Of a stretch of DNA of 64,000 nucleotides, positions 15,701 through 54,809 are shown in pieces. The notes beneath the pieces were generated by a model that worked only from the letters and a program-made list of their open reading frames with translations, was not told where the DNA came from and did no database searches. Numbering within the stretch: the first letter of the stretch is position 1; every line of letters begins with the position of its first letter. A program made the position numbers and the translations under genes. The DNA comes from Candidatus Kaiserbacteria bacterium. Lineage in GTDB: Bacteria; Patescibacteriota; Minisyncoccia; Phycocordibacterales; UBA2100. The DNA lies in contig CP066682.1 in the NCBI GenBank assembly GCA_016432285.1, positions 288,933-352,932 of the forward strand, given 5' to 3'.

Positions 15701-15707
15701 CATTCAT

Positions 15708-16202
15708 ATGAACGAGATAGGTACGTTTGTACGGAACCCGCTCGCGCTCGCTGGCTTCCTCGTGCTCCTCGGCGCGTTCGCTTTCATTTTGCTACGCAAG
15801 CCCGCTCCGCCCTTTTCTGCGACGATCGGCTCGTGTCGCGTGGGAGAGGCGTGCCCGGGGGGCGCGCAATTGAGCAGCGTTCCAACCATCGAAAGCAACG
15901 AGCTCGTGGCTGCGCTTGAGGTGAAAGATTTTTTCTTCGTAAACGTTCACACGCCATACCAAGGAGAGATCGGTAAGACTGACGCATTCATTCGGTACGA
16001 CGAAATAGGAGACAATCTCGACAAGCTGCCGCAAGACAAAAGCGTGAAGATCGTTCTCTACTGTCAGAGTGGCCGCATGAGCGAGATTGCCGCAAAAAAG
16101 CTCGCGTCGCTCGGATACACCAACGTCTCCCACCTTAAAGGCGGCATGGTCGAGTGGGAGAAGGAAGGGTACGAACTCATCCGGGAGGGAAGCGCACGGT
16201 AG
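15708..16202 (+). CDS. membrane-anchored rhodanese-domain sulfurtransferase
   Basis: N-terminal TM. Active-site loop IVLYCQSGRMS. Confidence 0.75.
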   Translation: MNEIGTFVRNPLALAGFLVLLGAFAFILLRKPAPPFSATIGSCRVGEACPGGAQLSSVPTIESNELVAALEVKDFFFVNVHTPYQGEIGKTDAFIRYDEIGDNLDKLPQDKSVKIVLYCQSGRMSEIAAKKLASLGYTNVSHLKGGMVEWEKEGYELIREGSAR

Positions 16203-16212
16203 GAGTCAACGT

Positions 16213-16659
16213 ATGAACGTACGCATACACGCAGGACACATCGCGCGCACACCGGCCATACAGGAGCGCATCGGTTGGATCTGCACGCTGCTCGAGCGAG
16301 CGGCGGATCCGCGGGACCTCTTGCGGCTCTCGTGCGACATCACGCTCACGAAGATCTCCCGCGGCGCAGCGCGTGGACGCTTCCGAGCGACCATCTATTT
16401 TGCGGGGGCGGGAGAACCTTTGACCGCAACGGGTGTGGGCGAGACACCTGAGACCGCGCTCGACGGCGCGCATGATACGATCGAACGGCACTTCTCTCTT
16501 GTGCGCAGAGGGGAACTCGGCACCCGGAGGATTACGGATTTTGCGCGCCGCCAGAATATCGCCCGAAGAGCGGTGGAGCGCGCGAAAGAGCTTGCGAGAA
16601 AGAAGGCGCCATCGTGGAGGGTGACGAAGCGCCGCCGTTTCGGCGACGAAGAGCAATAA
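16213..16659 (+). CDS. ribosome hibernation factor (HPF/RaiA/YfiA family)-like
   Basis: AGGAG lies 8 nt upstream of the ATG. MNVRIHAGHIARTPAIQERI...ALDGAHDTIERHF follows the HPF pattern. Basic C-tail. Confidence 0.55.
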   Translation: MNVRIHAGHIARTPAIQERIGWICTLLERAADPRDLLRLSCDITLTKISRGAARGRFRATIYFAGAGEPLTATGVGETPETALDGAHDTIERHFSLVRRGELGTRRITDFARRQNIARRAVERAKELARKKAPSWRVTKRRRFGDEEQ

Positions 16660-16668
16660 TTTAAAAAT

Positions 16669-18186: not shown

Positions 18187-18227
18187 CGCTCTGTAATATG
18201 TCACTTCCTCGCGCGTCGAAATAGGGT

Positions 18228-18710
18228 ATGTCAAAGACTGTACTCGCTTTGGGAGGAGCACTCGTCGTGCTCGCTGCGCTCTGGTATCTCTATGCGGCCA
18301 CTCCGGGTCCTGAAAATACGAATACATCCGGCACCAGCTCCGGCCTTCTTGCGGAAGAGAACGCGATCGTCATCGGTGAGCAGCGCCCCGGCACGAGCGT
18401 GCGCGGCTCGATTGTCTACCTTGCGGCCCCTGGCTTTTTCGTCATCCATGAGGATCAGAGTGGGCAGGTGGGAGCGATGCTTGGTGCGAGCGCACTTCTT
18501 CCCGCCGGCGAGAATCGCGATGTTGCCGTGAATCTTTCACGCACTTCGCGCGACGGCGAGACGCTGCGCGCCGTGCTCCACTCCGATACCAACGGCAATG
18601 GGCTCTTCGACGAGGCCGATCAGCCCGTGGAGAGCCGCCTCGGCGGCCCGATCAACGGCTGGTTTGAGATCTCCTCCGAGGCGAGCACTGATACGCCCGT
18701 GAGCATCTAA
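18228..18710 (+). CDS. secreted hypothetical protein
   Basis: 160 aa with an N-terminal TM. Confidence 0.5.
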   Translation: MSKTVLALGGALVVLAALWYLYAATPGPENTNTSGTSSGLLAEENAIVIGEQRPGTSVRGSIVYLAAPGFFVIHEDQSGQVGAMLGASALLPAGENRDVAVNLSRTSRDGETLRAVLHSDTNGNGLFDEADQPVESRLGGPINGWFEISSEASTDTPVSI

Positions 18711-18763
18711 ATGCTGCATCGATCGCGCTTGTGAAAAGAGCCGCGTAGTAGTACGATTTTTAT

Positions 18764-19147
18764 ATGAGATACGTCGCGATAGCGATCGTCATCGCCTTCC
18801 TCTCCATCGGCACCTTTGGGTTTGCAATCCTCGAGCACGAGGTGGGAGTCCACGAATCAGGCTGCGTCGCCGCGTCAATCAGCGAGGCACCATGCCCGAG
18901 CGAGCTCTTCGCGTCGGCTCTGTACCACATTTCCACGCTCACCGCCTTTAGCACCGTACCGCTCTCCCTCCCGCTTTTGCTTTTCATCGCCCTCGCGCTT
19001 ATCGCGCTTGTGCACACGAAGGGAATCGAACTCCCGCGTCTCCGCCCGCTTTTTTCAAGACGCACAGTTACTGACGACCAACCGCGACCATCGAGAAGCG
19101 CACTGCGCTCGCTCGCGCTTTTGGAGCACAGCCCTACTTTCGCGTAA
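18764..19147 (+). CDS. small membrane protein
   Basis: 127 aa, 2 TM, Cys pair in the loop. Confidence 0.4.
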   Translation: MRYVAIAIVIAFLSIGTFGFAILEHEVGVHESGCVAASISEAPCPSELFASALYHISTLTAFSTVPLSLPLLLFIALALIALVHTKGIELPRLRPLFSRRTVTDDQPRPSRSALRSLALLEHSPTFA

Positions 19148-19256
19148 GCCGCACGCCCTTTGACTCGGGATGCGGCAGGACGCCCGCGCGAAGCGGAGCG
19201 TTTTTGTGCAGCAGAGAATTACTTCCACTCACTATTCGCATCTACTTCACATCTCT

Positions 19257-19754
19257 ATGGATCTCAAAACTATCGCAATCAGTGCCGCGCTCATCGCAGG
19301 GATAGGCGCGCTCCTCTTTTGGGGTCGCGCAAGCGGCACGTCGGCGGCCCCCCAGGGAGGCGCGCAAAGCCCGCTCACGGCTTCGGAATTACAGTACGAC
19401 TTCGGAACGATCTCGATGAAAGACGGCCTCGTGAGCCGCACGTTCACGATTAGGAACGGGAGCGATGCCGAGGTTGTGCTCTCCGACATCTCCACCTCCT
19501 GCATGTGCACAAACGCGTATCTTCTCGCAGGTGACGGCGTAAAGAAGGGGCCGTTTGGCATGCCGGGGCACGGCGCCCCCTCGTCGAAGGTCGGCGAGCG
19601 CATTCCCTCGGGTGAGAGCCGCAGCCTCGAAGTGGTGTACGACCCCAACGCGCACGGACCCGCGGGCGTTGGATCAATCGACCGCTTTATCTATCTCGCT
19701 GACGAAACGGGCGGGCAGCTCACGCTTGAGATTAAGGCCAACGTAACGCCGTAG
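19257..19754 (+). CDS. DUF1573-domain membrane-anchored protein
   Basis: Start moved to MDLKT. The CMCT motif and beta-sandwich pattern match DUF1573. Confidence 0.55.
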   Translation: MDLKTIAISAALIAGIGALLFWGRASGTSAAPQGGAQSPLTASELQYDFGTISMKDGLVSRTFTIRNGSDAEVVLSDISTSCMCTNAYLLAGDGVKKGPFGMPGHGAPSSKVGERIPSGESRSLEVVYDPNAHGPAGVGSIDRFIYLADETGGQLTLEIKANVTP

Positions 19755-19755
19755 T

Positions 19756-20538
19756 ATGCGGCGACTCTTTATCGGCGGGAGCTCTCTTGTCCTCGCGCTT
19801 GCCGCGATCATCGCCCTGAAGTTCGCACCCGGCACGTCGAACATGCTCTGGGAGATCTCCGGTGGCGGGACATGGCTTTTGCCGCTCGTCGGCGTGTCGG
19901 CGGTACTCGATAGCGTGCACCCGTGCTCGTTCTCGATACTCCTCATCACGATCGCGCTCCTCTTCGGACTTCAGCTGTCACGCGGGAGGATTCTTGCGGT
20001 CGGCGGCGTGTACATCTTCGGTATCTTCCTGGCGTACCTCGCGATCGGCGTCGGCGCGCTCCAGGTGTTCCACCTCTTCAACGTGCCGCACTTCATGGGC
20101 AAGCTCGGCGCGATCGTACTCATCCTCTTCGGTATCGTGAATCTTCTGGGGGCAATCTTCCCGTCGTTTCCGCTGAGGTTGAAGTTGCCATCCGCTTCCC
20201 ACGCGGCGATGAGTACCCTCTTAGAAAAGGCGACGATTCCGGCAGCCTTTGTCTTGGGGCTCCTCGTCGGCGTGTGCCAGCTCCCGTGCCTCGGCGGCCC
20301 GTACCTCATGGTGATCGGGCTCTTGCATGACCAGGTAACCTACCTTCGGGGCCTTCTCTATCTTCTGCTCTACAACGTCATCCTCATTCTGCCGCTTGCG
20401 GCAGTGCTGTGGTTTGCCGCCGACAAGACGATCGTCGACCGGGCGCAGCAGTGGAAAAAGACGAATCTTCGTGCGGTGCGGCTCTGGGCCGGGATTGCAA
20501 TGGTAGCGCTTGGTATTATTGTTCTCGTTAGTCTCTAA
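19756..20538 (+). CDS. CcdA/DsbD_2-like transmembrane protein (second copy)
   Basis: HPCSFSIL in TM1 and CQLPCLGGP later. 6-7 TM. Confidence 0.6.
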   Translation: MRRLFIGGSSLVLALAAIIALKFAPGTSNMLWEISGGGTWLLPLVGVSAVLDSVHPCSFSILLITIALLFGLQLSRGRILAVGGVYIFGIFLAYLAIGVGALQVFHLFNVPHFMGKLGAIVLILFGIVNLLGAIFPSFPLRLKLPSASHAAMSTLLEKATIPAAFVLGLLVGVCQLPCLGGPYLMVIGLLHDQVTYLRGLLYLLLYNVILILPLAAVLWFAADKTIVDRAQQWKKTNLRAVRLWAGIAMVALGIIVLVSL

Positions 20539-20545
20539 CTATCGT

Positions 20546-20710
20546 ATGATCGGGAAACAGTTCAAATGGGGGGATCTGATCGCACGGATTGCGCGCTTCT
20601 TGCGGATTCCGCACTGCGACGAGTGCGAGCGGCGTCGGGTGATTCTCAACGACCTACAGGCGGCGGGCGTGAAAGAAACATTGAGAAAATTAAAAGATTG
20701 TTGCAACTAA
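20546..20710 (+). CDS. small Cys-containing protein (HCDEC...DCCN)
   Basis: 54 aa. Ends 2 nt before the next gene. Confidence 0.3.
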   Translation: MIGKQFKWGDLIARIARFLRIPHCDECERRRVILNDLQAAGVKETLRKLKDCCN

Positions 20711-20711
20711 C

Positions 20712-21593
20712 ATGATTACACAGACACTCGATACGCTTACATCGCGATTCGCCGTGCCTATCCTGATTACCTTTCTCGGCCTTGGTGCGCTCACGCTCCA
20801 AGGGGCGAGCGCCGGTATACAGGCTGCCTCGGTCCAACCGGATTACACGGCGCTCGCGGACGAGGTATCTCCAGCAAACGGCGTGGAACTGCCCGTCGTG
20901 TGGGGCGATCTTGGAAAAAAACTCGTCGAACGGGGCGTGATCGATCGGGAGAAGTGGACCGAGATCTACCGTTCGCTTTCGGCGGAAGAAGCGCGCCTCA
21001 TCGACGGCAATAGTCCGGAGAAGCTGCGGATCACGCGCGAGAATGCAGCGTACCTCCTCAATCTCTTCTGGGCCCTCGGGCTTGGCAACCAAAATCCGAT
21101 CCTCCAGGACGAGGCGGGGATGGAAAATCCGGAGTACGGCGGCGCGGGCTACTTCGCGTCGACGGGCGGCTGGAGCCTCGCCAAGGGCGAAGCCATGGAG
21201 CACTACGGCAAGTACGCGCTCGCGCCTCTCACGGGGGAACAGCAAGCGCTCGTGAAGAAAATCTCAGACGGCATCTATCGCCCATGCTGCGACAATCCGA
21301 CGAGCTTCCCAGACTGCAATCACGGTATGGCGATGCTCGGGCTCTTGGAGCTCCTTGCCTATCAGGGTGCGAACGAGGAGGAGATGTGGGACGCGGCGCT
21401 CGCTGCCAATTCGTACTGGTTCCCCGATACATATCAGATCATCGCACTCTCCATGAAGCAGCGGGGCGTCGCGTGGAGCGATGTCTCGCCGCAGGAGGTG
21501 CTCGGCAAAGAGTACTCAAGCTACACGGGTTTCAGCCGCATCGCGGCCGCTGTCGCGCCGAGCGCTGGGAGCGGTGCTTCCTGCAGCGTCTAG
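20712..21593 (+). CDS. exported hypothetical protein with PCCDN...PDCNHG motif
   Basis: 293 aa with an N-terminal TM or signal. Confidence 0.55.
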   Translation: MITQTLDTLTSRFAVPILITFLGLGALTLQGASAGIQAASVQPDYTALADEVSPANGVELPVVWGDLGKKLVERGVIDREKWTEIYRSLSAEEARLIDGNSPEKLRITRENAAYLLNLFWALGLGNQNPILQDEAGMENPEYGGAGYFASTGGWSLAKGEAMEHYGKYALAPLTGEQQALVKKISDGIYRPCCDNPTSFPDCNHGMAMLGLLELLAYQGANEEEMWDAALAANSYWFPDTYQIIALSMKQRGVAWSDVSPQEVLGKEYSSYTGFSRIAAAVAPSAGSGASCSV

Positions 21594-21629
21594 AAACAGG
21601 TACACTAACAACCAATCAAACATCCATCC

Positions 21630-22058
21630 ATGAAACTATTCTTTGTCGGCGTTCTCGCGTTTATCGCCCTCGCGGTGGCGAGCATCTTCCTCTTGCCGAA
21701 GCCGGACGGAAGCAACCTTTCGCAGGATCCAGATATTCTGGCGACCAACGGTATGCACTGGCATCCGCAGCTTTCGATCTTCGTAAAGGGCGAGCAGATC
21801 GAAATACCGCAAAACATCGGCATCGGCAGCGTGCACCAGACGATGCACACGCACGACGACCTACCGCTGCTGCATCTCGAATTTCCGGCACTCGTACGGC
21901 AGGCCGACGCGACGCTCGGCCGCTTCTTCTCGATCTGGGGCAAGGACATGAGAAGCCTCGGAGCGAACATGCGCATGACCGTGAACGGGCAGGTGAGCAC
22001 CGAGTACGAAAACTACGTGATGCACGACGGCGATAAGATTGAGCTGCATTACGATTAG
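21630..22058 (+). CDS. exported hypothetical protein (His-rich HWHP...HTHDD)
   Basis: 142 aa with a signal/TM. Confidence 0.5.
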   Translation: MKLFFVGVLAFIALAVASIFLLPKPDGSNLSQDPDILATNGMHWHPQLSIFVKGEQIEIPQNIGIGSVHQTMHTHDDLPLLHLEFPALVRQADATLGRFFSIWGKDMRSLGANMRMTVNGQVSTEYENYVMHDGDKIELHYD

Positions 22059-22164
22059 CGCTTGGGGACAAGCCCGCGAAAACATGAGCGAGTGCGCTAC
22101 ACTTATCGGTACATAATTGCGCAATTATGAAATTATCCATGTCCATTCTGTGCCCATCTCCCGT

Positions 22165-23406
22165 ATGAACTGGATTACCGACGTCTGGTCGCTCCTCTAT
22201 TACCTCATCGTGCAGGGCTTCGGGCTCGTGCTTGCGGGCGCGGCTGCGGTGGTCTTTCTCTTCATCGTGTTGCGGCGCCACCATTCCCTCAAAGTCACGC
22301 TCCTCCTCGGCGCCTTCTTCGTAGGATCGATGCTCTTCTTTTGGTTTCCGGTGGGCGTGCCGCAAAACCTCCAGTATCCCTTCGGGCTCACGACCTACGG
22401 CCCCGCGGAGGGCCCCGCGCTTCCCTTAAAGAACATCTTTCGCTTCTTCGCGAACCTCGGCAATTTCGAGCGTGTCGCGGATATTTCGCGCGATCCGCAA
22501 GATGTGCCGAAGGAAATCGTCAGGAACGAAAAAGGAGAAGTAGAAATCAATATCCTCGCCAAAGAAGTACTCTCCGAGATCGCGCCCGGAGTCGTGGTCA
22601 ACTATTGGACCTTCGACGGCACCGTGCCGGGACCTTTCTTGCGAGTGCGGGAAGGGGACACCGTCGTGTTGACGCTGCGGAACGACCCCTCGAGTCTCCA
22701 CATGCACTCGATTGATTTGCATGCGGTGACGGGCCCCGGCGGCGGCGCGGTGGCGACCGACGTGGAGCCAGGTGAGGAGAAGACACTCCGCTTCAAGGCC
22801 TTGAATCCCGGACTCTACGTGTACCACTGCGCGCACCCCAATGTCGCCAACCACATGGCGCACGGCATGTACGGCCTCATTCTCGTGGAGCCAAAAGGAG
22901 GCTTGCCGCCGGTGGATCGAGAGCTCTACGTCATGCAGGGAGAGATGTACACGGCCGCGCCGCGCGGCACGAAGGGCTTGCAAGTGATCGACGCCACCAA
23001 GATGCTTTCGGGCAATCCCGAGTACATCTTCTTCAACGGCCGCGTCGGCGCGATCTCGAAGGACGAGCTCTCGGTGCAGCAAGGGGAGAAGGTGCGCATG
23101 TACGTCGGCAACGGCGGCGTAAATCTCATCTCGAGCTTCCACCTCATCGGCGAGATATTCGACACCGTCTATCCGGAGGCGCAGATGGGTGGCGCCACCT
23201 TCAAGAACGTACAGACGACACTCGTACCCGCAGGCGGAGCGGCGATCACCGAGTTTACCGCCGACGTGCCGGGAGGTTACGTCCTTGTCGATCACGCGCT
23301 TGCGCGGATCGATAAGGGTGCGTGGGGCACGCTGAAAGTGGAAGGCGAAGCGCGACCGGATCTCTTCGACGGCGACCTTTCGGGGGCCGAGCACAGCGGC
23401 CACTAA
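22165..23406 (+). CDS. copper-containing nitrite reductase-like (NirK family), membrane-anchored
   Basis: HMHSIDLHAVTGPGGGA and YVYHCAHPNVANHMAHGMYGLILVEP match type 1 / type 2 Cu ligands. N-terminal TM helices. The ORF could begin at 22117. Confidence 0.7.
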   Translation: MNWITDVWSLLYYLIVQGFGLVLAGAAAVVFLFIVLRRHHSLKVTLLLGAFFVGSMLFFWFPVGVPQNLQYPFGLTTYGPAEGPALPLKNIFRFFANLGNFERVADISRDPQDVPKEIVRNEKGEVEINILAKEVLSEIAPGVVVNYWTFDGTVPGPFLRVREGDTVVLTLRNDPSSLHMHSIDLHAVTGPGGGAVATDVEPGEEKTLRFKALNPGLYVYHCAHPNVANHMAHGMYGLILVEPKGGLPPVDRELYVMQGEMYTAAPRGTKGLQVIDATKMLSGNPEYIFFNGRVGAISKDELSVQQGEKVRMYVGNGGVNLISSFHLIGEIFDTVYPEAQMGGATFKNVQTTLVPAGGAAITEFTADVPGGYVLVDHALARIDKGAWGTLKVEGEARPDLFDGDLSGAEHSGH

Positions 23407-23411
23407 AGAAT

Positions 23412-23436
23412 CAAAAAGCGGCGCGCCGCTTTCTCG
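23412..23436 (+). terminator. rho-independent terminator
   Basis: AAAAAGCGGCGCGCCGCTTTCTC hairpin followed by a T-run, directly after the NirK stop. Confidence 0.6.
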
Positions 23437-23528
23437 ATTGGAAACGCTGAGCTGATGGATCGCGGTCCGAGGTATCATCGGCGATCTCGACTAATGAAAT
23501 TTAAAAAGATCCTGCTATACTTCTCCAA

Positions 23529-25082
23529 ATGCCATCGCCAGCCTCCATCATCGCAACGATCCGACAGCGGCCTTTTTTTTATGGGGCGATAGCCGTGGCA
23601 GTACTTGCCGTGGCCTTCTTTCTCTCGGGCGGCAAAAAAGAAGATCCGGAGGTGCTCACCGCCACGCGCGGGAACTTCGTGCAGGAAGTGAGCGTCTCGG
23701 GCACCGTGATAGCCGCTGAAGACGTCGAGCTCGGCTTTACGCAGGGTGGTCGCGTCGCGGCCGTGCGCGCAAAGGTGGGCGATCAAGTAGGGGCGGGTGC
23801 CACCCTCGCATACCTTGAAAACGGCGACCTTGCTGCCGCCGTCGCGCAGCGGAATGCGGCACTCGAAAAGGAGCGCGCCAAGCTCGCGCAGCTCCAGTCC
23901 GGCACGCGACCCGAAGAGGTCGCGATCAAACAGGCGGCAGTCACCGAGGCGCGCGTCTCGCTCGATCGGGCCAACGAGGCGCTGATCGACTCGATCCTCG
24001 ACGCGTACACGACCGCGGACGACGCCGTGAGCAACACGGTCGACCAGTTCATCAACAATCCGCGCTCCAACCCGCAGCTCGAGTTTTCCGTAGCCGACAC
24101 GAAGTGGGAGAGCGCGCTCGAAACAAAGCGACCCTCCGTCGAGACCATGCTGGTAAGCTGGCAGAGCGAAGTGAACGCGCTGAGCCCGACTGCCGATCTC
24201 ACCGCGGCCGTCTCGAAGGCGCGCGCCAATCTCTCGACCATTTCAGATTTCCTTATTGAAGCCAACGGAGCTTTGAATTCCGGCATCACAACGCTCACCT
24301 TTACCGAAAGCGTGCGCGACGGCTACATCGCCGACGTCGGCGGAGCGCGCTCCAGCGTCAACGCCGCATCTTCGGCGCTCACCTCTGCCGTGACCGTGCA
24401 GAAAAACGCCCAGGCGTCGCTCGATACTGCCAACAGGAACCTCACGCTCTCGGAGGCCGGTTCCGAAAACGCTGACATACAAGCACAAGCAGCCGTCGTG
24501 AAGGCAGCCGAGGCCGACGTGCAGAGCGCACAGGCCCAGCTGCAAAAAACGATCATTGTCGCTCCTTTTAGCGGCATCGTAACGCGCGTCGACATCAAGC
24601 GCGGCGAGATCGCGTCGGCAAACGCCTCTCCCATCGCCATGATCGGCAACGGCGCGTACCAGATCGAGAGCTTCATCCCCGAGGTCAATATCGCGCGCAT
24701 CGAACTACGGGATTCGGCGATGGTAACGCTCGACGCATACGGCGATGAGGAGGAGTTTGTCGCTACGGTAGTGTCGATCGATCCGGCGGAAACGGTACGC
24801 GACGGCGTCTCTACCTACCGCGCGCTCCTCCAGTTCGATGCGACCGACACGCGCATCCGCACCGGCATGACCGCCAACGTGCGAATCACGACCGAAGAGA
24901 AGAGCGATGTCGTGAGCGTTCCGCAGGGAGTCGTGATCGCTCGGGAAGGCAAAAAATACGTCAAAGTACAATCGGGCAAGGATGTCGTCGAACGGGAAGT
25001 GACGACCGGCTCCACCGCGAGCTCCGGCAACATCGAAATACTGACGGGCCTTCAGGGAGGAGAGATCCTCGTGCTTCCGTAG
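23529..25082 (+). CDS. periplasmic adaptor (HlyD/MacA-like membrane fusion protein)
   Basis: N-terminal TM, long coiled-coil, C-terminal beta domains. Directly upstream of the FtsX/ABC pair. Confidence 0.75.
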   Translation: MPSPASIIATIRQRPFFYGAIAVAVLAVAFFLSGGKKEDPEVLTATRGNFVQEVSVSGTVIAAEDVELGFTQGGRVAAVRAKVGDQVGAGATLAYLENGDLAAAVAQRNAALEKERAKLAQLQSGTRPEEVAIKQAAVTEARVSLDRANEALIDSILDAYTTADDAVSNTVDQFINNPRSNPQLEFSVADTKWESALETKRPSVETMLVSWQSEVNALSPTADLTAAVSKARANLSTISDFLIEANGALNSGITTLTFTESVRDGYIADVGGARSSVNAASSALTSAVTVQKNAQASLDTANRNLTLSEAGSENADIQAQAAVVKAAEADVQSAQAQLQKTIIVAPFSGIVTRVDIKRGEIASANASPIAMIGNGAYQIESFIPEVNIARIELRDSAMVTLDAYGDEEEFVATVVSIDPAETVRDGVSTYRALLQFDATDTRIRTGMTANVRITTEEKSDVVSVPQGVVIAREGKKYVKVQSGKDVVEREVTTGSTASSGNIEILTGLQGGEILVLP

Positions 25083-25085
25083 GGC

Positions 25086-26339
25086 ATGTTTTCACCCCTC
25101 AATATCCGGATCGGCTTCTACCTCGCCTTGCGGGCGCTGCGGCGTGCCTCGCTCTGGACCACCGGTCTCATTGTCTTCGTGATGGTGCTCACGTTTTTGA
25201 ACCTCGTGGTGATCTCCGGCATTCTCGTGGGCCTTTTGCAGGGAGCCGTCGATGCCGTGCGCACGCGCTACACGAGCGACGTGATCATCTCCACGCTGAG
25301 CGATAAGAAATATATCGAAAACAGCCCCAACCTCATCGAGCTCGCCCGCAACCTCGAGGGCGTCGAGGCGCTGACCCCGCGTTATCGCGAGTCGGCCTCG
25401 CTCGAAGCCAACTACCGCACTCGCAAAGAATCCGACAAGGCCAACATCGCGCCGGCGCAGATCATCGGTATCGATCCCGCAAGTGAAGACGAAGTCACGG
25501 GGCTCTCGGAAGATCTGATCGAGGGGGAATTTCTCGTGCCGGGTGATTACGACAAGATCGTGCTCGGCAACTACCTCCTCAAGCAGTACATGGTGATCGA
25601 AACCCCCGGCCTCGCGACTCTGGAGAACGTCGGGATCGGCACGAAGATCCGCATCCACGTGGGGGACGTCACGCGCGAGGTGGAGGTGAAAGGGATTCTC
25701 AAGAGCAAGGTCGACGAGATCGCGCTCCGTGCCTTCATGGTGGACTCGCAGTTCCGGAGCATGATCGGTCGCAACGACGGCAACGTCGACGAAATCTCGA
25801 TCAAGGTGGAGGAAGATGTTGACCCGGCAGAAGTGCGCGACGCGCTTTTGCTGCGGGGAGCCGGCAACGACGCGCGCGTCCAGACGTACGAGGATGCGCA
25901 GCCGCAGGCGTTCAAGGACATCATCGCGACCTTCAGTATGCTCGGGACTATGTTCTCGTCGATCGGCCTCGTGGTCGCCTCGGTTACGATCTTCATCGTG
26001 ATTTTCATCAACGCGATCACGCGGCGCAAGTACATCGGCATCTTGAAAGGCATCGGCATTCACGGAAAGGTGATCGAGCTCTCGTACGTCTTCCAGTCGA
26101 TCTTCTATGCGGTGCTCGGCTCAGCGGTCGGGCTTGCGCTCGTGTACGGCTTCCTCGTTCCGTATTTCGCCAATAATCCGATCGACTTTCCCTTCAGCGA
26201 CGGCATCCTTGTGGCGCCCATCAACCAGACTTTCTTCCGGGTAGGCCTTCTCATCGTCTCCACGGTCATCGCCGGTTACATTCCCGCGTGGATGATCGTG
26301 CGGCGCAACACGCTCGACTCGATACTCGGTCGCAACTAG
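25086..26339 (+). CDS. ABC transporter permease, FtsX/MacB-like
   Basis: 417 aa with N-terminal TM, a large extracytoplasmic domain and 3 C-terminal TM. Confidence 0.8.
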   Translation: MFSPLNIRIGFYLALRALRRASLWTTGLIVFVMVLTFLNLVVISGILVGLLQGAVDAVRTRYTSDVIISTLSDKKYIENSPNLIELARNLEGVEALTPRYRESASLEANYRTRKESDKANIAPAQIIGIDPASEDEVTGLSEDLIEGEFLVPGDYDKIVLGNYLLKQYMVIETPGLATLENVGIGTKIRIHVGDVTREVEVKGILKSKVDEIALRAFMVDSQFRSMIGRNDGNVDEISIKVEEDVDPAEVRDALLLRGAGNDARVQTYEDAQPQAFKDIIATFSMLGTMFSSIGLVVASVTIFIVIFINAITRRKYIGILKGIGIHGKVIELSYVFQSIFYAVLGSAVGLALVYGFLVPYFANNPIDFPFSDGILVAPINQTFFRVGLLIVSTVIAGYIPAWMIVRRNTLDSILGRN

Positions 26340-26341
26340 CT

Positions 26342-27022
26342 ATGATCAGGACAAAAAATCTCACGAAGACATTTAAGAACGGCGACGTGGAAACGCGCGT
26401 CTTGAAGGGCATTGATTTTGCCGCCGGGCAGGGAGAGTTTATCGCGATCATGGGCAGAAGCGGCGCCGGGAAGAGCACCTTTTTGTATCAGATTAGCCTC
26501 CTCGACGATCCGACGGGCGGCGAGATCGTGATCGACGGGCATGACACGCACACGATGAGCGCCGAGGAGAAGATGCTCTTCCGGCTCTCGCGCTTCGGAT
26601 TCGTCTTTCAGGACTACGCGCTCCTTCCGGAGCTCACGGCGCTCGAAAACGTAGCGGTGCCGCTTTTGATGCAAGGCAAGACGAAGAAAGACGCGTATGC
26701 TTCCTCCTCGGCAGCGCTCGATCGCGCTGGCCTGGGGCATCGCCTCAACAATCTCCCGAGTCAGCTCTCCGGGGGAGAACAACAGCGCGTGTCGATCGTG
26801 CGCGCCGTCGCGCACAATCCGAAAATCTTGTACGCCGACGAGCCGACCGCCAACCTCGACAACGATTCCTCCGCGAAGATCATGGAGATCTTTAAGGAGC
26901 TGCACGCCAAAGGTCAGACCATCATCATGGTGACGCACGAGGAGCAGTACGCGAAAATGGCGCAGCGCATCGTGCGTCTCGACGACGGAAAAATCGTCTC
27001 CGAGACGAAGGCACTTTCATGA
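26342..27022 (+). CDS. ABC transporter ATP-binding protein (MacB/LolD type)
   Basis: Walker A GRSGAGKST, signature LSGGEQQR, H-loop. Confidence 0.85.
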   Translation: MIRTKNLTKTFKNGDVETRVLKGIDFAAGQGEFIAIMGRSGAGKSTFLYQISLLDDPTGGEIVIDGHDTHTMSAEEKMLFRLSRFGFVFQDYALLPELTALENVAVPLLMQGKTKKDAYASSSAALDRAGLGHRLNNLPSQLSGGEQQRVSIVRAVAHNPKILYADEPTANLDNDSSAKIMEIFKELHAKGQTIIMVTHEEQYAKMAQRIVRLDDGKIVSETKALS

Positions 27023-28308
27023 CGATGGAGGTAGTGCGGCAGTTCGCGGGGGAGACTTTCAGCTCGCTCGCGATTCGCAACTATCGCCTTTACTTTATCG
27101 GCCGCGGCTTCTCGCACGTCGGCGACTGGATGCAGGTGGTGGGCGTGGGGTGGCTCGTACTGGATTTGACCGGCTCCGGCGTGAAGCTCGGAACCGTGCT
27201 CGCTATCTTTTTCCTCCCGCTCCTTCTTGGCGGCCCCTTTCTCGGGATCATCCCGGATCGGTTCGACAAGCGGCGGGTGATGTTTCTCACGCAGTCGATC
27301 ATGGCGGCGCTCGCGCTCCTGCTCTCGGTGCTGGTGTTTTTTGAGCTTGTCCAACTATGGATGCTTTATGCGTTCGCCCTCCTCTACGGGACCGTCAATG
27401 CGATCGACACGCCGACGCGGCAGACCTTTTTACATGAGATGGTGGGGAAGGATCACCTTCGCAATGCCGTCACGCTCATGTCGACCGAAGCGAATCTCGC
27501 GCGCGCCCTCGGCCCGCTCTTCGCGGGTGCCCTCATTGCGGGCTTCGGGATCGCGTTTTGCTTTTTCGTCAACGCGCTCTCGTTTGTGGCGGTGCTCGTC
27601 ATCCTTTCGATGATGCGCGAGGAGGAGATGCATCGCGAGACGCCCTCGAGCGAGCCCATAGACCTGCTTTCCGGTTTTCGGTATGTTCGCTCGGTCCCGC
27701 TCATCCGAGGCGTACTCATTTCCATGGCGGTGATCGGCACGCTCTCGTACGAATTCCAGGTGAGTCTGCCGCTCTTGGCAAAGGGAACGTTCGGCGGGGG
27801 TGCGGCGGATTACGCGGCGCTGCTTTCCGCCATGGGCGCCGGATCGGTGGCAGGCGGACTCTTTGCGGCGAGCCGCCAGCGAGTCGCGCTCCACGAGTTT
27901 TTCCTCTCGATGCTTCTCTTTGGCATCTCGATTCTCGTGACGGCCGTGATGCCGAGCGTGAGCTTGGCAACCGTCGGGATGATTTTCGTGGGTTTCTTTT
28001 CGATCAATCTCACGAGCGTGGGCAACACCATGATCCAGCTCGAAGCGGATAGTTCCCTGCGTGGGCGCGTCATGGCGCTCTGGTCGATGGCGATCTTCGG
28101 CTCCACGCTGATCGGCGCTCCGATCATCGGATTCCTGGGAGAATTTGCGAATCCCCGCATCGCGCTTGCCGTAAGTGGCGCGGCTGCCCTCTTGACCGCG
28201 CTCTTTGGCGGCTGGAGGCTTTTGAAACTCGACCGGCTGCTTCCCATTCCCGCTTTCATAAAGATTCGCCGCGAGGAAGAGGAGGCGATCGCGCAAACGA
28301 AGGTGTAG
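27019..28308 (+). CDS. MFS transporter
   Basis: 429 aa, 12 TM. Confidence 0.8.
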   Translation: MTMEVVRQFAGETFSSLAIRNYRLYFIGRGFSHVGDWMQVVGVGWLVLDLTGSGVKLGTVLAIFFLPLLLGGPFLGIIPDRFDKRRVMFLTQSIMAALALLLSVLVFFELVQLWMLYAFALLYGTVNAIDTPTRQTFLHEMVGKDHLRNAVTLMSTEANLARALGPLFAGALIAGFGIAFCFFVNALSFVAVLVILSMMREEEMHRETPSSEPIDLLSGFRYVRSVPLIRGVLISMAVIGTLSYEFQVSLPLLAKGTFGGGAADYAALLSAMGAGSVAGGLFAASRQRVALHEFFLSMLLFGISILVTAVMPSVSLATVGMIFVGFFSINLTSVGNTMIQLEADSSLRGRVMALWSMAIFGSTLIGAPIIGFLGEFANPRIALAVSGAAALLTALFGGWRLLKLDRLLPIPAFIKIRREEEEAIAQTKV

Positions 28309-30187: not shown

Positions 30188-31885
30188 ATGAAGAAAATCG
30201 CCTCCGCCTTGGCCCTCTCCGCACTCTTCGTCGCGGGTGCCGTCAGTGCACAGACCTACACCTATTCGTATCCCGCAGGCAGCTGCACAACGCTCTCATC
30301 CGACCTCTCGGACGGGTCGCGCGGCACCGAGGTGCGCTCGCTTCAGAGCTTCCTCGTCACACAGAATTATCCGGGCGGCGGTAGTTGGATGATGACGGGC
30401 TATTTCGGGCAGGCGACCGCGGCCGCGCTCCGGCTCTTCCAGCAGTCGGCGGGGTTGCCGCAAAGCGGCATGCTCGATGCGGCAACGCGTGCGTCTATCC
30501 AATCGCGTTCGTGCGGTTATGCTCCGACGAACACGAACACGAATTTTAATTTCAACTCCTACACCTACCCGAACACCTACACCGCACCCTCCTCGAACTA
30601 CAATTACAACTACACGTATCCCTACTCGACGCCGTACGCATACAACGTCGTCAATCTCACGTCGCTCTCTCAAAACACCGGCACTCCCGGATCCTCCGTC
30701 ACGATCTACGGCACCGGCTTCGACAGCGTGAGCAACACCGTGTATCTCGGATCGAGTGTGATCGGGAGCGTTGGTTCCAGCAACGGCACCTCGCTCACTG
30801 TTTCAATCCCGCCGTACTTCGGCCTCGGCTCGACGTACCTCAAGGTCTCAAACGCGCGCGGCACCTCGAATACGCTCAGCTTCTCGATCGTCGCTTCTCC
30901 GTACGCGTGCAATTCGATCTACGGCTACGGATCTTCCGGCTGCAACGCATCGTGCCCGATCGGCGTCGTGTGCGACGGCCACGCCGGCGCTCCCTACATC
31001 GCGTCGATGGTGCCGACTTCAGGCTCGACCAACAGCACGGTAACGCTCATGGGCTCGGGCTTCACGGCGAATGGCAACACCGTGCACTTTGGGAACGGTA
31101 TCATCACCAATCTCAACTCCGTCGACGGTCGCGGCCTCTCGTTCACGATTCCGACGACGCTCACCGGATACGGTTCGCAGCAGGTCAACCTCGGAAGCTA
31201 CCCGGTCTACGTAACCAACAGCCGCGGAGAAAACAGCAACACGGTTACCTACTCGATCACCTCCACGGCAGGCTCGACCGGCACGCCGATCCTCGGATCG
31301 GTACAGGGTCCTTCGACGCTCGGCCTCGGCGCGCAGGGCACGTGGACGCTCTCGGTGAATGCGCCGACCGGCTCCTTCCTCACAACGACGATCCGGTGGG
31401 GCGATGAGGGCACCTACGGCACGCAGGCGCAGCCGCAGACAATCGCGCTCTCCGGCGCACAGACGCTCTCGTTCTCGCACACCTACTACACGGCGGGCAC
31501 GTACACGATCACCTTCACCTTCAGCGGCGCGGGCGGCACCAACGCGACAACGGCGACGGTCACGGTGGGGAGCGGCACCAACGTCCTGACGCTCACTTCG
31601 CTCACGCCTTCTTCCGGCCCGGTCGGCACACCGGTTACTCTCACCGGCACCGGCTTTACCGGCGACAACACGATTCACTTCGGCACCGGCGGCGTGCAGC
31701 ACGTCACCTCGGCGAGCAACACGTACCTTTCGCTCACGATTCCGGCGTACATCTCGCCATGCGATCTTCTCAATCCGGGTTACGCGTGCGGGGCGCCGCT
31801 TCAGAGTGTGGTTCCGGGCACGTATCCGGTCTACGTGACGAACAGCAACGGAGCGACCAACATTCTCTACTTCAACGTCCAATAA
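30188..31885 (+). CDS. secreted protein with peptidoglycan-binding domain, Tyr/Asn-rich linker and repeated IPT/TIG-like domains
   Basis: Signal peptide, PG_binding_1-like region, low-complexity NYNYNYTYPY stretch, then at least 4 repeats of LTSL..G.PG..VT..G.GF. Confidence 0.65.
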   Translation: MKKIASALALSALFVAGAVSAQTYTYSYPAGSCTTLSSDLSDGSRGTEVRSLQSFLVTQNYPGGGSWMMTGYFGQATAAALRLFQQSAGLPQSGMLDAATRASIQSRSCGYAPTNTNTNFNFNSYTYPNTYTAPSSNYNYNYTYPYSTPYAYNVVNLTSLSQNTGTPGSSVTIYGTGFDSVSNTVYLGSSVIGSVGSSNGTSLTVSIPPYFGLGSTYLKVSNARGTSNTLSFSIVASPYACNSIYGYGSSGCNASCPIGVVCDGHAGAPYIASMVPTSGSTNSTVTLMGSGFTANGNTVHFGNGIITNLNSVDGRGLSFTIPTTLTGYGSQQVNLGSYPVYVTNSRGENSNTVTYSITSTAGSTGTPILGSVQGPSTLGLGAQGTWTLSVNAPTGSFLTTTIRWGDEGTYGTQAQPQTIALSGAQTLSFSHTYYTAGTYTITFTFSGAGGTNATTATVTVGSGTNVLTLTSLTPSSGPVGTPVTLTGTGFTGDNTIHFGTGGVQHVTSASNTYLSLTIPAYISPCDLLNPGYACGAPLQSVVPGTYPVYVTNSNGATNILYFNVQ

Positions 31886-31906
31886 AAACCGGACGTGGAA
31901 AGCACC

Positions 31907-31933
31907 AAAAGCGCCCGAAAGGGCGCTTTTGTC
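31907..31933 (+). terminator. bidirectional rho-independent terminator
   Basis: AAAAGCGCCC-GAAA-GGGCGCTTTTGTC. Confidence 0.7.
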
Positions 31934-51031: not shown

Positions 51032-51964
51032 ATGTTCCGGATCGCTCGCGCCCTCGTCCTTTTGATACTTCTTGCCGGTGGCGCATTCTACTTCCGCGCG
51101 GAGCTCACCACGGTGGCTGCCCAGCTCGCTGCAAGGTACGCTCCTTGCGCGAGTCCGATTCGCTACTCTATCGAAACGTTTGACGAGCGCTTCGATATTT
51201 CACGCGAGGATTTCGAGGCGGCGATCGCCGATGCGGAAGCGATTTGGGAGAAAAGCTCCGGCCGGGACCTTTTTGCCAACGATCCCTCGGGTACCCTGAA
51301 GATCAATCTTTTGTACGATTCGCGGCAGGCCACCACCGAGCGCCTCCAGGATCTGGGCCTCGAAGTGGACGACACGCGCTCCTCGTACGACCAGCTGAAG
51401 GATCGATACGACACGCTCCGAGCCGGGTACGAGGCGAGAGTGCGTGCCTTCGAAAGCGCGTATGCGCAGTTTCAGAAAGACCAGGCCGCATACAACAGGG
51501 AGGTGGCGTACTGGAACGGCCGCGGCGGCGCGCCGGAAAGCGAATATCAAAAATTGCAGAAGGAAAAACTGGAGCTGGCCAACCGCTCTGCCGCGCTCCA
51601 AACACAGCAAGCCTTGGTGAGTGCCGATGTCGATGACATCAACGCGCTTGCGGACGCACTCAATCATGCCGCGCGGGCACTGAATCTCGACATTGCAGAG
51701 TACAACTCGGTGAGCCGGACCACGGGCGACGAGTTTGAGGAAGCGGTGTACATAAGTTCGCCCGGCTCGCACCGGATCGACGTATACGAGTTTGGCAGCT
51801 ACTCAAAGCTCGTGCGTGTTTTGGCGCACGAGCTCGGGCACGCGCTCGGGCTTGACCACATCGACGACGAGAGCGCGATCATGTACCGCGTGAATCAGAG
51901 TACCAACGAGCGTGCCACTGCCGCCGACCTTGCCGAGCTGGATCGCGTGTGCGTCGCGAAGTAA
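51032..51964 (+). CDS. membrane-anchored zinc metalloprotease (metzincin/matrixin-like)
   Basis: HELGHALGLDH matches HExxHxxGxxH. Coiled-coil spacer. Confidence 0.7.
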   Translation: MFRIARALVLLILLAGGAFYFRAELTTVAAQLAARYAPCASPIRYSIETFDERFDISREDFEAAIADAEAIWEKSSGRDLFANDPSGTLKINLLYDSRQATTERLQDLGLEVDDTRSSYDQLKDRYDTLRAGYEARVRAFESAYAQFQKDQAAYNREVAYWNGRGGAPESEYQKLQKEKLELANRSAALQTQQALVSADVDDINALADALNHAARALNLDIAEYNSVSRTTGDEFEEAVYISSPGSHRIDVYEFGSYSKLVRVLAHELGHALGLDHIDDESAIMYRVNQSTNERATAADLAELDRVCVAK

Positions 51965-52301: not shown

Positions 52302-52667
52302 ACAGTTTCTTCGGCCGCAACTGATCACAGGCGTGAGGCGCACTGCGCGCGGGTCGTACGTACGACCTGCGCGTTTCTATTTTCAGAAATTCTTCACCAA
52401 GGAGGCGCGACAATGGCCCGACAGGTCGAGTTTTAATCGACTTATTTTTTTATCGCACTATGAACAAGGATCACGATCACGACAAATCGCAGCAGCAGCG
52501 CGACGCAGAAGAGATGCAGAGCGATATGCGAGGCGAGCAGCGACAGGAGGACACGAGCGCCCGCAAAGAGGAAGACGACCAAAAGGAGGGCATGTAGTAA
52601 GATGCGGGAACGATACGCAGGAGCGTATCGTTCCCGCTGCGGCGGGTCTTTACGCAAACTTTTGTAT

Positions 52668-53204
52668 ATGAACCTGACCCAACGAATTGTTGCCGGAGTC
52701 GCCGTCCTTGCGGTTGTGGCGGCAGTGGCCTATCTGGCCTTCTTCCGCAACGGCACCTCGCACGAGACGGCGCGATACACCAACGATACCTACGGATACA
52801 CGTTCGAACACCCGGTGGAAGACGAGGTACGAGCCGAGAGTCCCGAGCACCTCATCGTGAGCGAGCCGGGCGATGGGAGCGAGACGTATGTCCATGTCGC
52901 CGAAGGATCCGATTCCGATTTTGAAAGCTTCGCTGGGCAAGCGGCCCGCGGTACGTGCGGTGAGTGTGGAGAGGTGGCGGCGCTTCAGCCGTTTACCTCC
53001 ACGAGAGGACTCGGAGGAGTCATCTTTTATCTCTTGATTACGGGGAGCGACGGCGAGTATCGCGGCCCGTTTTTTGCGTACGACATTTCTTCGCCCGGTA
53101 CCACTCGCGCACTGCTCGTGTACGGCACCAGCGGCTCGGAAGAGGATCCGCTTTCGGTCGGGCTCATCGCTGATTCGATCGAAATTCAGGAAGCGGAAGG
53201 TTGA
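52668..53204 (+). CDS. membrane-anchored secreted hypothetical protein
   Basis: Start at MNLTQRIVAG, N-terminal TM. Confidence 0.55.
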   Translation: MNLTQRIVAGVAVLAVVAAVAYLAFFRNGTSHETARYTNDTYGYTFEHPVEDEVRAESPEHLIVSEPGDGSETYVHVAEGSDSDFESFAGQAARGTCGECGEVAALQPFTSTRGLGGVIFYLLITGSDGEYRGPFFAYDISSPGTTRALLVYGTSGSEEDPLSVGLIADSIEIQEAEG

Positions 53205-53321
53205 AATAGCGGGCCGGCGCATCCGTCATCACGCGTAAGCGGCGATTCACTCCCGCTTCACTCCGGCGGCGTTTAAATTGCTACGGTCGGTGATTAGACG
53301 CTAATCATCCAGTAAACCGTT

Positions 53322-53534
53322 ATGACACCACGAAAGTTGATAAGCGCTGCGGCGCTTTCGCTTCTTTTTGCGGCAGGTGCGGTGAGCGCGCAGACCACGA
53401 GTACGACCACGCCCGGTACTCCAAATACCGGCCTTGGCGGTGACTTCGCTCAAAATGCAATCGTGCTTGCGACGACAGGAGCCGTCGCGATCGCAGGCAT
53501 CGCGTACCTCGCACGCCGGACAAGAAGCGTATAG
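53322..53534 (+). CDS. minimal sortase substrate (signal peptide + about 25-aa mature part + LATTG sorting signal)
   Basis: C-terminal LATTG, then a hydrophobic stretch, then RRTRSV, which is a classic tripartite cell-wall sorting signal. The sortase gene is 49 nt downstream. Confidence 0.55.
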   Translation: MTPRKLISAAALSLLFAAGAVSAQTTSTTTPGTPNTGLGGDFAQNAIVLATTGAVAIAGIAYLARRTRSV

Positions 53535-53582
53535 GATTTCAGGCAGCGAGCCCTGTGGGCTCGCTGCCTCCTCCGCATTCGT

Positions 53583-54185
53583 ATGCAGCAATCACGCACA
53601 ACTACCGTCGTCATCGGCATTATCACGATAGCGGCTATCGTTACCTTCGGCGCGACGCTCGCGAGGGCGCTTTGGTATTCGCCCGATACCGAAGTGGACA
53701 TTCCCTCCACCGGACAGGCGATCACGCCCGCATCTCCCGAAGCATATCCCGCGCGGCTTGAAATTCCGTCGCTTGATATTGATGCGGCGGTGCAGTACGT
53801 GGGTATCAACGCAAAGGGCAACATGGCCAACCCATCGAATTTCACCGACGTCGGCTGGTACAAGGGCGGGACGGTGCCCGGCAGCGTGGGGAGCGCTGTC
53901 ATGGCGGGGCATCTCGACAACGCACTCGCGCTCGATGGCGTATTCAAACGTCTCAAGGAACTCAAGGCGGGCGATTCCATGTATGTAACGACCGTCGGCG
54001 GGGAGAAGCTCCGTTTCGTGGTGCAGGAAGCGAGCGTCTACAACTACCTCCAGGCTCCGGTCGAGCGCATTTTCAAACGGGCCGACCGGGCGCGCCTCAA
54101 CCTCATTACGTGCGAGGGGGAGTGGATCAAAAGTGACAAAACGTACGACGAGCGGCGAGTCGTGTATGCGGTACTCGCATCGTAG
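53583..54185 (+). CDS. sortase (class E/F-like)
   Basis: N-terminal TM, catalytic AGHLDN ... LNLITCEG ... R. Confidence 0.8.
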   Translation: MQQSRTTTVVIGIITIAAIVTFGATLARALWYSPDTEVDIPSTGQAITPASPEAYPARLEIPSLDIDAAVQYVGINAKGNMANPSNFTDVGWYKGGTVPGSVGSAVMAGHLDNALALDGVFKRLKELKAGDSMYVTTVGGEKLRFVVQEASVYNYLQAPVERIFKRADRARLNLITCEGEWIKSDKTYDERRVVYAVLAS

Positions 54186-54188
54186 CCC

Positions 54189-54809
54189 GTGCCGGCCAAA
54201 ACGGCTATACTGCCCGCAATGGCGAAGGGCCGCGACATCGAATTTCTCTACGAGATTGGCTCCCTGCGCAACATCCCGCGCGCGTGGATCCAGCACCTTG
54301 CGACCGACTGCGCCTCGACGCTGGAGCACACGATCCGCGTCGTTTTCCTTGCGCTCCTCATCGCCCGCAAAGAAGGGGTGAAGAGTGAGGAGAAGATCAT
54401 CAAAATGGCGCTGCTCCACGATCTCGCGGAGACGCGCACCGCCGATCTCGCATACGTGCACAAGGTCTACACAAAAGCTGACGACGCGCGCGCCGCGCGC
54501 GATCTCTTGGCAGGCACTTCACTCGATGATTTTGAGGCCATCGTCGTAGAGTACGAGAAACGCTCCTCGATCGAGGCGAAAATTGTGAAAGATGCCGACA
54601 ACCTCGACATCGATCTGGAGCTCCGCGAGCTCGAAGAGCGGGGAAATAGGGTGGCGGCCAAAAAGCAGCCGCTGCGGAAATTTGTGCGCGACAAAAAGCT
54701 CTACACGAAAACGGCGAAGAGCATGTGGGATGAGATCCAAAAGTCCGATCCCTCAAGCTGGCACCTTGCGACCAACAAGTGGCTGAAGATTCCCAGCGCA
54801 GGAAAATAG
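54189..54809 (+). CDS. HD-domain phosphohydrolase (YfbR-like)
   Basis: H...HDLAE...D motif. Confidence 0.75.
   Translation: MPAKTAILPAMAKGRDIEFLYEIGSLRNIPRAWIQHLATDCASTLEHTIRVVFLALLIARKEGVKSEEKIIKMALLHDLAETRTADLAYVHKVYTKADDARAARDLLAGTSLDDFEAIVVEYEKRSSIEAKIVKDADNLDIDLELRELEERGNRVAAKKQPLRKFVRDKKLYTKTAKSMWDEIQKSDPSSWHLATNKWLKIPSAGK

Follow-up and report, generated by a model that had tools for sequence, protein, structure and literature searches.

A class-F-like sortase gene and an adjacent minimal, threonine-rich candidate substrate in Candidatus Kaiserbacteria and related Paceibacteria

In the LPXTG-sortase paradigm, precursors with a signal peptide and a C-terminal signal made of a TG-ending motif, a hydrophobic helix and a basic tail, preceded by a Pro/Thr-rich wall-spanning region, are processed by a membrane-anchored cysteine transpeptidase with a His-Cys-Arg triad. 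The only class F enzyme to have been characterised, that of Cutibacterium acnes, accepts LPXTG (PMC8225981, PMC13251363); the physiological role of this class was still reported as unknown in 2026, and a quadruple class F deletion in Actinoplanes had no phenotype (PMC13251363). Sortases are present in more than half of the genomes of the Candidate Phyla Radiation (CPR; PMC6744442), and in the CPR literature that we searched they are noted as common, while papers naming their substrates were not found. Here we describe a gene pair in a 64-kb stretch of DNA (the window) from a metagenome-assembled genome (MAG) of Candidatus Kaiserbacteria, a CPR bacterium. It consists of a gene for a 70-aa protein (HYS26_02050, located on an 859-kb contig in the NCBI record) and the sortase gene that follows it. 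By its predicted architecture, this cassette follows the LPXTG-sortase paradigm, with class F as its nearest counterpart. It is likely, in our view, that peptidoglycan receives a short, possibly glycosylated Thr-rich peptide from a class-F-like sortase dedicated to this substrate; we infer both the acceptor and the reason for the attachment.

The two open reading frames (ORFs) lie on the same strand with a gap of 48 nt (Table 1), as given in a preliminary description of this DNA, and the small gene is the only ORF with a sorting signal within the window. On all seven contigs reached through homologues of the small protein, the small gene is found immediately upstream of a sortase gene, within several different sets of flanking genes. 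Retrieval through the sortase alone yielded 80 loci, all of them from Paceibacteria-type MAGs and with sortases 43–61% identical to the window enzyme. A substrate with a PNTG-type signal is encoded directly upstream and on the same strand in 55 of these 80 loci, and within 3 kb in five more; 37 of the 55 are minimal substrates of less than 120 aa. Several of the loci lacking a substrate are truncated by contig ends. The outline of the preliminary description, a small sortase substrate paired with a sortase, is thus borne out by this pairing, whereas the details that it gave for the motif, the enzyme class, a chaplin-like product and a leader family are not. We consider the cassette to be a dedicated sortase-substrate pair that is probably typical of Paceibacteria (Parcubacteria). 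A profile built from ten of the small proteins matched 501 clusters at E-values up to 1e-3 among 1.84 billion representatives, and almost all of the best 150 of these clusters have lengths of 60–138 aa. No earlier description of the cassette was found in the literature searched on CPR sortases, PNTG and class F, and none of the existing curated models describes a PG-x-PNTG-x-GG signal or a family of 60–140 aa.

Table 1. Features of the sortase-substrate cassette, in coordinates of the window.
Feature	Position	Strand	Basis
70-aa minimal sortase substrate gene (predicted pre-pro-peptide)	53322..53534	+	ORF listing; NCBI name hypothetical protein HYS26_02050
Predicted Sec signal peptide, aa 1-23, cleavage AVSA/QT	53322..53390	+	basic N-terminus, hydrophobic core, A-x-A
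Thr-rich segment QTTSTTTPGTPNT, aa 24-36	53391..53429	+	predicted remainder after both cleavages
Candidate sorting motif T33-P34-N35-T36-G37, predicted cut T36/G37	53418..53432	+	conservation
Rest of sorting signal: spacer LGGDFAQNA aa 38-46, helix aa 47-64, tail RRTRSV aa 65-70	53433..53531	+	sequence
LATTG, aa 49-53, within membrane helix, unconserved	53466..53480	+	alignment columns
Perfect 13-bp G+C-rich stem-loop, terminator- or attenuator-like, without U-tract	53541..53569	+	folding: dG -33.8 kcal/mol, z -5.2
Class-F-like sortase gene, 200 aa	53583..54185	+	Pfam Sortase, NCBIfam class F, AlphaFold2, Foldseek
Catalytic triad codons: His110 53910-53912, Cys177 (LITC) 54111-54113, Arg191 54153-54155	53910..54155	+	

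The small protein has all the parts of a tripartite sorting signal, i.e., a TG-ending motif, about 18 hydrophobic residues and a basic tail, together with a signal peptide: TPNTG is followed by a 9-aa spacer, a hydrophobic helix of 18 residues and RRTRSV. In an alignment of the window protein with nine homologues (40–73% identical, 71–98 aa), Q24, T25, T29, P31, G32, P34, T36, G37, G39 and G40 are invariant and N35 is nearly so. A23, Q24 and T25 at the end of the signal peptide are likewise invariant or nearly invariant, and N45, L49, G59, L63 and R65 are conserved in the helix and tail region. We also counted residues in 60 sortase-adjacent substrates (the 55 mentioned above, the window protein and those of loci L001–L004), taking the Pro of the motif as position 0. 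The core is almost uniform, with P at position 0 in 59, N at +1 in 43, T at +2 in 57 and G at +3 in all 60 substrates. Conservation extends upstream (T at -4 in 41, P at -3 in 48, G at -2 in 54) as well as downstream (A at +4 in 36, G at +5 in 58, G at +6 in 55, N or D at +7, N at +11 in 48), and position -1 is variable (T 20, V 15, A 11, L 7, I 3). Judged from this pattern, the recognition motif is [T/V/A/L]PNTG-x-GG rather than LAXTG, and the extended sorting signal is TPG-x-PNTG-x-GG-[DN]-x3-N, followed by the helix and the basic tail. As in LPXTG proteins, a Pro/Thr-rich stretch precedes the motif. In contrast to the LPXTG paradigm, the first motif position in these substrates is T/V/A/L instead of L, N is strongly preferred at the third, and the signal continues to PG upstream and to x-GG-[DN]-x3-N downstream; moreover, the host belongs to the CPR, there is no passenger domain and the curated anchor models are not reached.

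Short precursors and non-LPXTG motifs are also known from the EF2685/EF0750 family (~105 aa), the Ruminococcus NPXTG proteins and the GVDTG domain (NF058571). The models for these are the best matches to our family members, all of them below the curated cutoffs. The NCBIfam NPXTG sorting-signal model aligns with aa 34–67 of the window protein at a sub-threshold score, and the NPXTG, Gram_pos_anchor, TIGR01167 and GVDTG_CTERM models all align exactly at the PNTG signal, likewise below threshold. Weak matches to Gram_pos_anchor were obtained for four of the ten homologues (best E 0.0028) and to TIGR01167 for two of them (best E 0.05); related sequences score 14.6–17.2 bits against Gram_pos_anchor, for which the cutoff is 20. 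In IMG, one 74-aa family member is labelled as 'LPXTG-motif cell wall-anchored protein'.

The partner enzyme matches the Pfam Sortase family (PF04203, peptidase C60) with 75.8 bits (E 3e-21; cutoff 26.6). It has an N-terminal membrane helix (aa 2–31) and a catalytic domain (aa 56–198), and His110, Cys177 and Arg191 are invariant in an alignment of 18 sequences. An AlphaFold2 model (predicted local distance difference test, pLDDT, 82) shows the N-terminal membrane helix and a beta-barrel. Foldseek confirmed the sortase fold with no class clearly preferred, returning sortases of known structure from classes A, C, D and E with E-values of 1e-9 to 1e-11, 14–22% identity and a probability of 1.00. 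Searching the PDB with a profile of the sortase gave only distant matches of classes C and D (best E 2e-5), and no class F structure was among the matches of either the profile or the fold search. Among the NCBIfam sortase models, class F (NF033748) scores best, with 127.7 bits against a curated cutoff of 166, and leads by about 94 bits the general (34.1), class E (33.7), class D (29.5) and class C (26.3) models. By these profile scores the enzyme is class-F-like, a label that we chose because its best score stays below the curated cutoff; the NCBI annotation names the window sortase and its relatives class F sortase.

On the reading of the preliminary description, a class E sortase would cut at LATTG, and the remaining 25 or so residues could be a peptide fixed to the wall or a chaplin-like element. 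The string is indeed present at aa 49–53, followed by hydrophobic residues and RRTRSV, and LAXTG is the published class E motif (PMC8225981). Yet the corresponding columns of the ten aligned proteins read LATTG, LTASG, LGASG, LATTG, LGVLS, LGASA, LLTSG, LAGAA, LGASA and IILSI, so that LA.TG is kept in only two of them, and LATTG itself lies within the helix, with only 11 hydrophobic residues before the RR of the tail, too few for a membrane span. Because the conserved motif is TPNTG at aa 33–37, the predicted mature part comprises 13 residues and not about 25. The class E model (NF033747) reaches only 33.7 bits, compared with its cutoff of 160 and with the class F score of 127.7. The nearest precedent for such a reading, Streptomyces SrtE1/E2 with the long chaplins ChpA–C, shares with our locus a high-G+C context and small sortase-anchored surface proteins. 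It differs in that the enzyme here is not of class E and LAXTG is not conserved in the substrates, and chaplins carry a hydrophobic amyloid-forming domain, in contrast to the hydrophilic, Thr-rich exported part of the Kaiserbacteria protein. No chaplin family was found among the Pfam matches at E-values up to 0.1. Cleavage at LATTG by a class E enzyme is thus almost certainly not what this pair does.

Minimal proteins are not the only candidate substrates of these sortases. Among the 60 adjacent substrates, 42 are shorter than 120 aa and 18 are longer (138–857 aa), with passenger regions that lack annotation; Pfam and NCBIfam assigned no family to the long substrates from related loci. Both types end in the same PNTG signal. 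The long substrates include a ~230-aa family, a Cys-rich repeat family (GCxSxxGYSxxxGxPC), a 495-aa protein with repeats of the 230-aa module and an 857-aa protein (loci L039, L044, L047, L053, L061, L070, L081, L082; L054, L062, L073, L078, L084; L063; L064). When the sortases were arranged in a rough neighbour-joining tree, those with minimal substrates, the window enzyme among them, made up one large clade with 45–60% identity between its members, and those with long substrates fell into other clades. A diverged subclade (L016, L022, L036, L041, L057, L069) carries the motif P[SA][TA]G[EQA]GG, and here the substrate and sortase genes abut or overlap, with gaps of about 0–1 nt (-2 to +1). 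The sortases of this subclade carry G140S and T187E/D, with residue 187 close to the catalytic Arg, which is modest evidence for co-evolution of enzyme and motif.

The occurrence of long substrates with the same signal in related sortase clades could suggest that the 70-aa gene is a decayed, functionless remnant of a longer surface protein that has lost its passenger domain. Against this, the minimal form fills a large clade of sortases with only 45–60% identity, recurs in the 501 clusters, and has its signal peptide, motif and reading frame intact throughout. In comparison with its closest orthologue (L001), the small gene has a ratio of non-synonymous to synonymous substitution rates (dN/dS) of 0.21. 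Constraint is strongest at aa 24–45, where nine synonymous and one non-synonymous differences were counted; the signal peptide as well as the helix and tail evolve much faster, with a proportion of non-synonymous differences (pN) of 0.32–0.35. This substitution pattern indicates that the 70-aa ORF is a real gene under selection, and we regard decay as highly improbable.

In 40 minimal homologues, the predicted anchored peptide is 10–49 aa long (median 17.5) and consists of 41% Thr, 11% Gly, 11% Pro and 8% Ser, a composition resembling that of wall-spanning or mucin-like stalks; weak compositional matches to a Thr-rich glue-protein family were seen for three of the ten profile members. The mature N-terminus is QT in 39 of the 40, and Lys occurs in a single anchored peptide. 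The uniform N-terminus, together with weak matches of two of the ten members to TrbC/VirB2 pilins, could point to a sortase that joins the peptides head to tail into a polymer or a ring, or that hydrolytically releases a diffusible signal peptide. Some TrbC/VirB2-type pilins are cyclised head to tail. An N-terminal Gln tends to cyclise to pyroglutamate, which as a matter of general chemistry would block the amine needed for such joining, and unrelated secreted proteins of this lineage usually start with Q at +1 as well. The TrbC/VirB2 match (PF04956) of 17.8 bits stays below the cutoff of 27.9 and is explained by the two hydrophobic segments of the protein; a pilin fold is absent. The near-absence of Lys as a nucleophile argues against a pilus polymerisation of the class C style, and the low complexity and variable length of the peptides argue against a specific ligand. 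Polymerisation, cyclisation or release therefore all appear very improbable to us.

Small transmembrane proteins that act on sortases are known: the 52-aa SafA, linked to the housekeeping sortase of actinobacteria, binds SrtA and blocks its cleavage by signal peptidase, and like the gene studied here it is a short ORF with a transmembrane helix that is conserved beside a sortase gene (PMC9282373). Our small protein might accordingly be a membrane partner or regulator of the sortase, as SafA or a pseudo-substrate would be, or the C-terminal part left over after cleavage, GLGG...RRTRSV, might be the functional product, e.g., a signal for a sensor. Such a function would fit the unusually strong conservation of the residues behind the cut (G-x-G-G-[DN]-x3-N) and the two-component system genes that recur as neighbours of the cassette. 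The sortase also carries a conserved small-x-small site, A27-R28-A29 (53661–53669), after its membrane helix, in which A29 is invariant and which is followed by a conserved LWYxPD. It resembles an A-x-A site and recalls the signal-peptidase site of Actinomyces SrtA that is protected by SafA. SafA, however, is encoded downstream of class E sortases, has neither a cleavable signal peptide nor a sorting motif, and is characterised by PGP and FPW motifs; the small gene lies upstream, and neither motif occurs in the sequences of its family. In addition, the same signal terminates long proteins with real passenger domains, which fits a sorting signal and not a regulator, and purifying selection is strongest on the exported part and the motif, not on the fast-evolving helix and tail. 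We thus consider a partner, regulator or leftover-signal function quite unlikely.

Between the two genes lies a perfect stem-loop without a U-tract (Table 1), one of only ten perfect hairpins of at least 10 bp in the 64 kb, most of which are located at gene 3′ ends. In 38 of 60 loci a hairpin with a stem of at least 8 bp sits in the corresponding place; the sequences of these hairpins are unrelated, and some are followed by T-runs. Such hairpins are absent from the diverged subclade with abutting genes. The hairpin is probably a terminator or attenuator that would allow the substrate to be made in excess of the enzyme, and since it directly follows the substrate gene, this excess is probably large. 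A sigma-70 promoter scan revealed no promoter upstream of either gene, and an Rfam scan of 53000–54400 gave no match.

Taken together, attachment of the short peptide to the wall would proceed as follows. The 70-aa precursor would be exported by the Sec pathway and cut by signal peptidase after AVSA, and its C-terminal helix and RRTRSV tail would retain it in the membrane. There, the neighbouring membrane-anchored sortase would recognise TPG-T-PNTG-L-GG and cut between T36 and G37. Recognition of PG-x-PNTG-x-GG by the adjacent enzyme is suggested by conservation, gene linkage and co-variation between lineages; the predicted cleavable peptide would thus be TTPGTPNTGLGGD and not IVLATTGAVA. The 13 residues QTTSTTTPGTPNT would then be transferred to a cell-wall amine which, judging from known sortases, is probably that of lipid II or a peptidoglycan stem peptide. 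The window encodes GlmS and three PG_binding_1 proteins in the Pfam scan, and therefore peptidoglycan is present. The product would be a very short hydrophilic stub, covalently bound to the wall and free of any passenger domain. As a working hypothesis, it most likely decorates the surface in the manner of a mucin and may be O-glycosylated.

The GspA/SrtA/LcpA system of Actinomyces oris (PMC6381275) sets a precedent for a glycosylated, stalk-only substrate whose main task is to bring glycan to the wall by way of a sortase. Glycosylation of GspA has been demonstrated and needs an adjacent LCP enzyme; in contrast, the Kaiserbacteria cassette has no linked LCP or glycosyltransferase gene, and glycosylation of its product is hypothetical. 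Families that recur among the 150 ORFs scanned as neighbours of the cassette in related loci are DHO_dh-like proteins (17), Peptidase_M10 metalloproteases (11), PAP2 (7) and BacA (4). The latter two are unrelated families of undecaprenyl-pyrophosphate (Und-PP) phosphatases, which thus account for 11 of the 150 neighbours, located just upstream of the cassette; their recurrence hints at a link to the lipid-carrier cycle. L004 (952–1422) and the P0006 and P0009 contigs are examples of loci with such phosphatase genes, and in some cases a GT2 glycosyltransferase gene lies one gene further. In the window itself, the product of 51032–51964 is anchored in the membrane and combines a coiled-coil region with a matrixin-type HExxH domain at its C-terminus; proteins of this kind recur upstream of the cassette in L001, L002 and other loci.

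Several observations weigh against attachment of the peptide to the wall by a dedicated class-F-like sortase. The enzyme falls short of the curated class F cutoff, the first motif position of the window protein is T and not L, and this protein has no match to Gram_pos_anchor or TIGR01167 at E-values up to 0.1. About a quarter of the sortase loci have no substrate nearby, and the window sortase may have other, larger substrates elsewhere in the genome. The intergenic hairpin could equally mean that the two genes form separate transcription units. Neither glycosyltransferases nor LCP enzymes are enriched among the 150 immediate neighbours, and no glycosylation gene was found among the window proteins scanned. 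Finally, we infer the cleavage site, the acceptor and any glycosylation from the sequences.

The signal peptide of the small protein (53322–53399) closely resembles that of a PG-binding protein with TIG repeats which is encoded elsewhere in the window (30188–30256). As the preliminary description had noticed, the two are nearly identical: 13 of 15 residues match when they are anchored at the cleavage site. This value lies above every comparison set, with maxima of 11 for the small protein and 12 for the TIG protein against their own orthologues, and of 11 of 15 among 5,830 cross-family, cross-genome pairs. The explanation offered at the time, a paralogous family of secretion leaders, finds no support at the DNA level. 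Only three of the 13 identical residues share their codon, nucleotide identity is 30 of 45, and each protein family has its own orthologous signal peptides in other genomes. At all four residues by which the small protein differs from its closest orthologue (I->F, T->A, A->V, G->S), a single non-synonymous change has brought it closer to the TIG sequence. The low codon sharing and these four single changes make a recent duplication or gene conversion of the signal peptide unlikely, and we rejected this explanation on codon usage. Our best guess from the sequences is convergence within the genome, perhaps toward the leader that works best for exported proteins made at a high level, an idea suggested by the terminator-like hairpins at the ends of both genes.

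The TIG protein itself (30188–31885) combines PG_binding_1 with TIG/PKD repeats and is a member of a family conserved in Kaiserbacteria; its gene is followed by a terminator-like hairpin of 11 bp at 31906–31931. It lacks a C-terminal sorting signal or anchor and is thus not a sortase substrate. It matches the NCBIfam 'choice-of-anchor Z' PGGG-repeat model (42.3 bits, cutoff 30) and, weakly, the CPR pilus protein PamR (21.8 bits compared with a cutoff of 300). A link of the cassette to CPR Pam pili was considered and rejected: these pili form by donor-strand exchange, not by sortases, and occur mainly in Saccharimonadia and Microgenomatia.

Elsewhere in the window, a perfect 15-bp hairpin (52604–52637) overlaps the first codons of a listed 200-aa ORF (52602–53204). 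It probably terminates the preceding transcription unit, and the true start of this ORF is probably a later Met near 52662 (MYMNLTQRIV...). The region 13463–26339 contains a metal-handling cluster, which is unusual for a small CPR genome, with a three-domain multicopper oxidase (16669–18186), a second Cu-oxidase protein (22117–23406) and a 745-aa ORF (13463–15700) that by its appearance is a putative P-type ATPase. A set of HlyD, MacB/FtsX and MFS efflux genes is located at 23529–28308.

In this cassette the cognate substrate of a class-F-like enzyme is obvious and its extended motif well defined, which makes specificity directly testable with peptides. A bolder version of the proposed attachment, which we regard as rather doubtful, is that the bulk planting of gene-encoded, passenger-less, Thr-rich peptides of 10–49 aa on peptidoglycan, as an O-glycosylated 'mini-mucin' brush, is what this sortase mainly does in much of the Paceibacteria. 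Templated by a protein, such a brush would replace wall glycopolymers (e.g., teichoic acids) in ultra-small, biosynthetically poor cells. If so, the cassette would also reveal, for the first time, a natural substrate of a class-F-like sortase, with the motif [T/V/A/L]PNTG-x-GG. If the stub is an ordinary minor decoration, what changes is the annotation only, with PNTG in place of LATTG and a class-F-like in place of a class E enzyme. The CPR envelope is still poorly understood, and the maintenance of a passenger-less substrate across hundreds of lineages suggests that the stub, or the cargo that it carries, may be a structural part of it.

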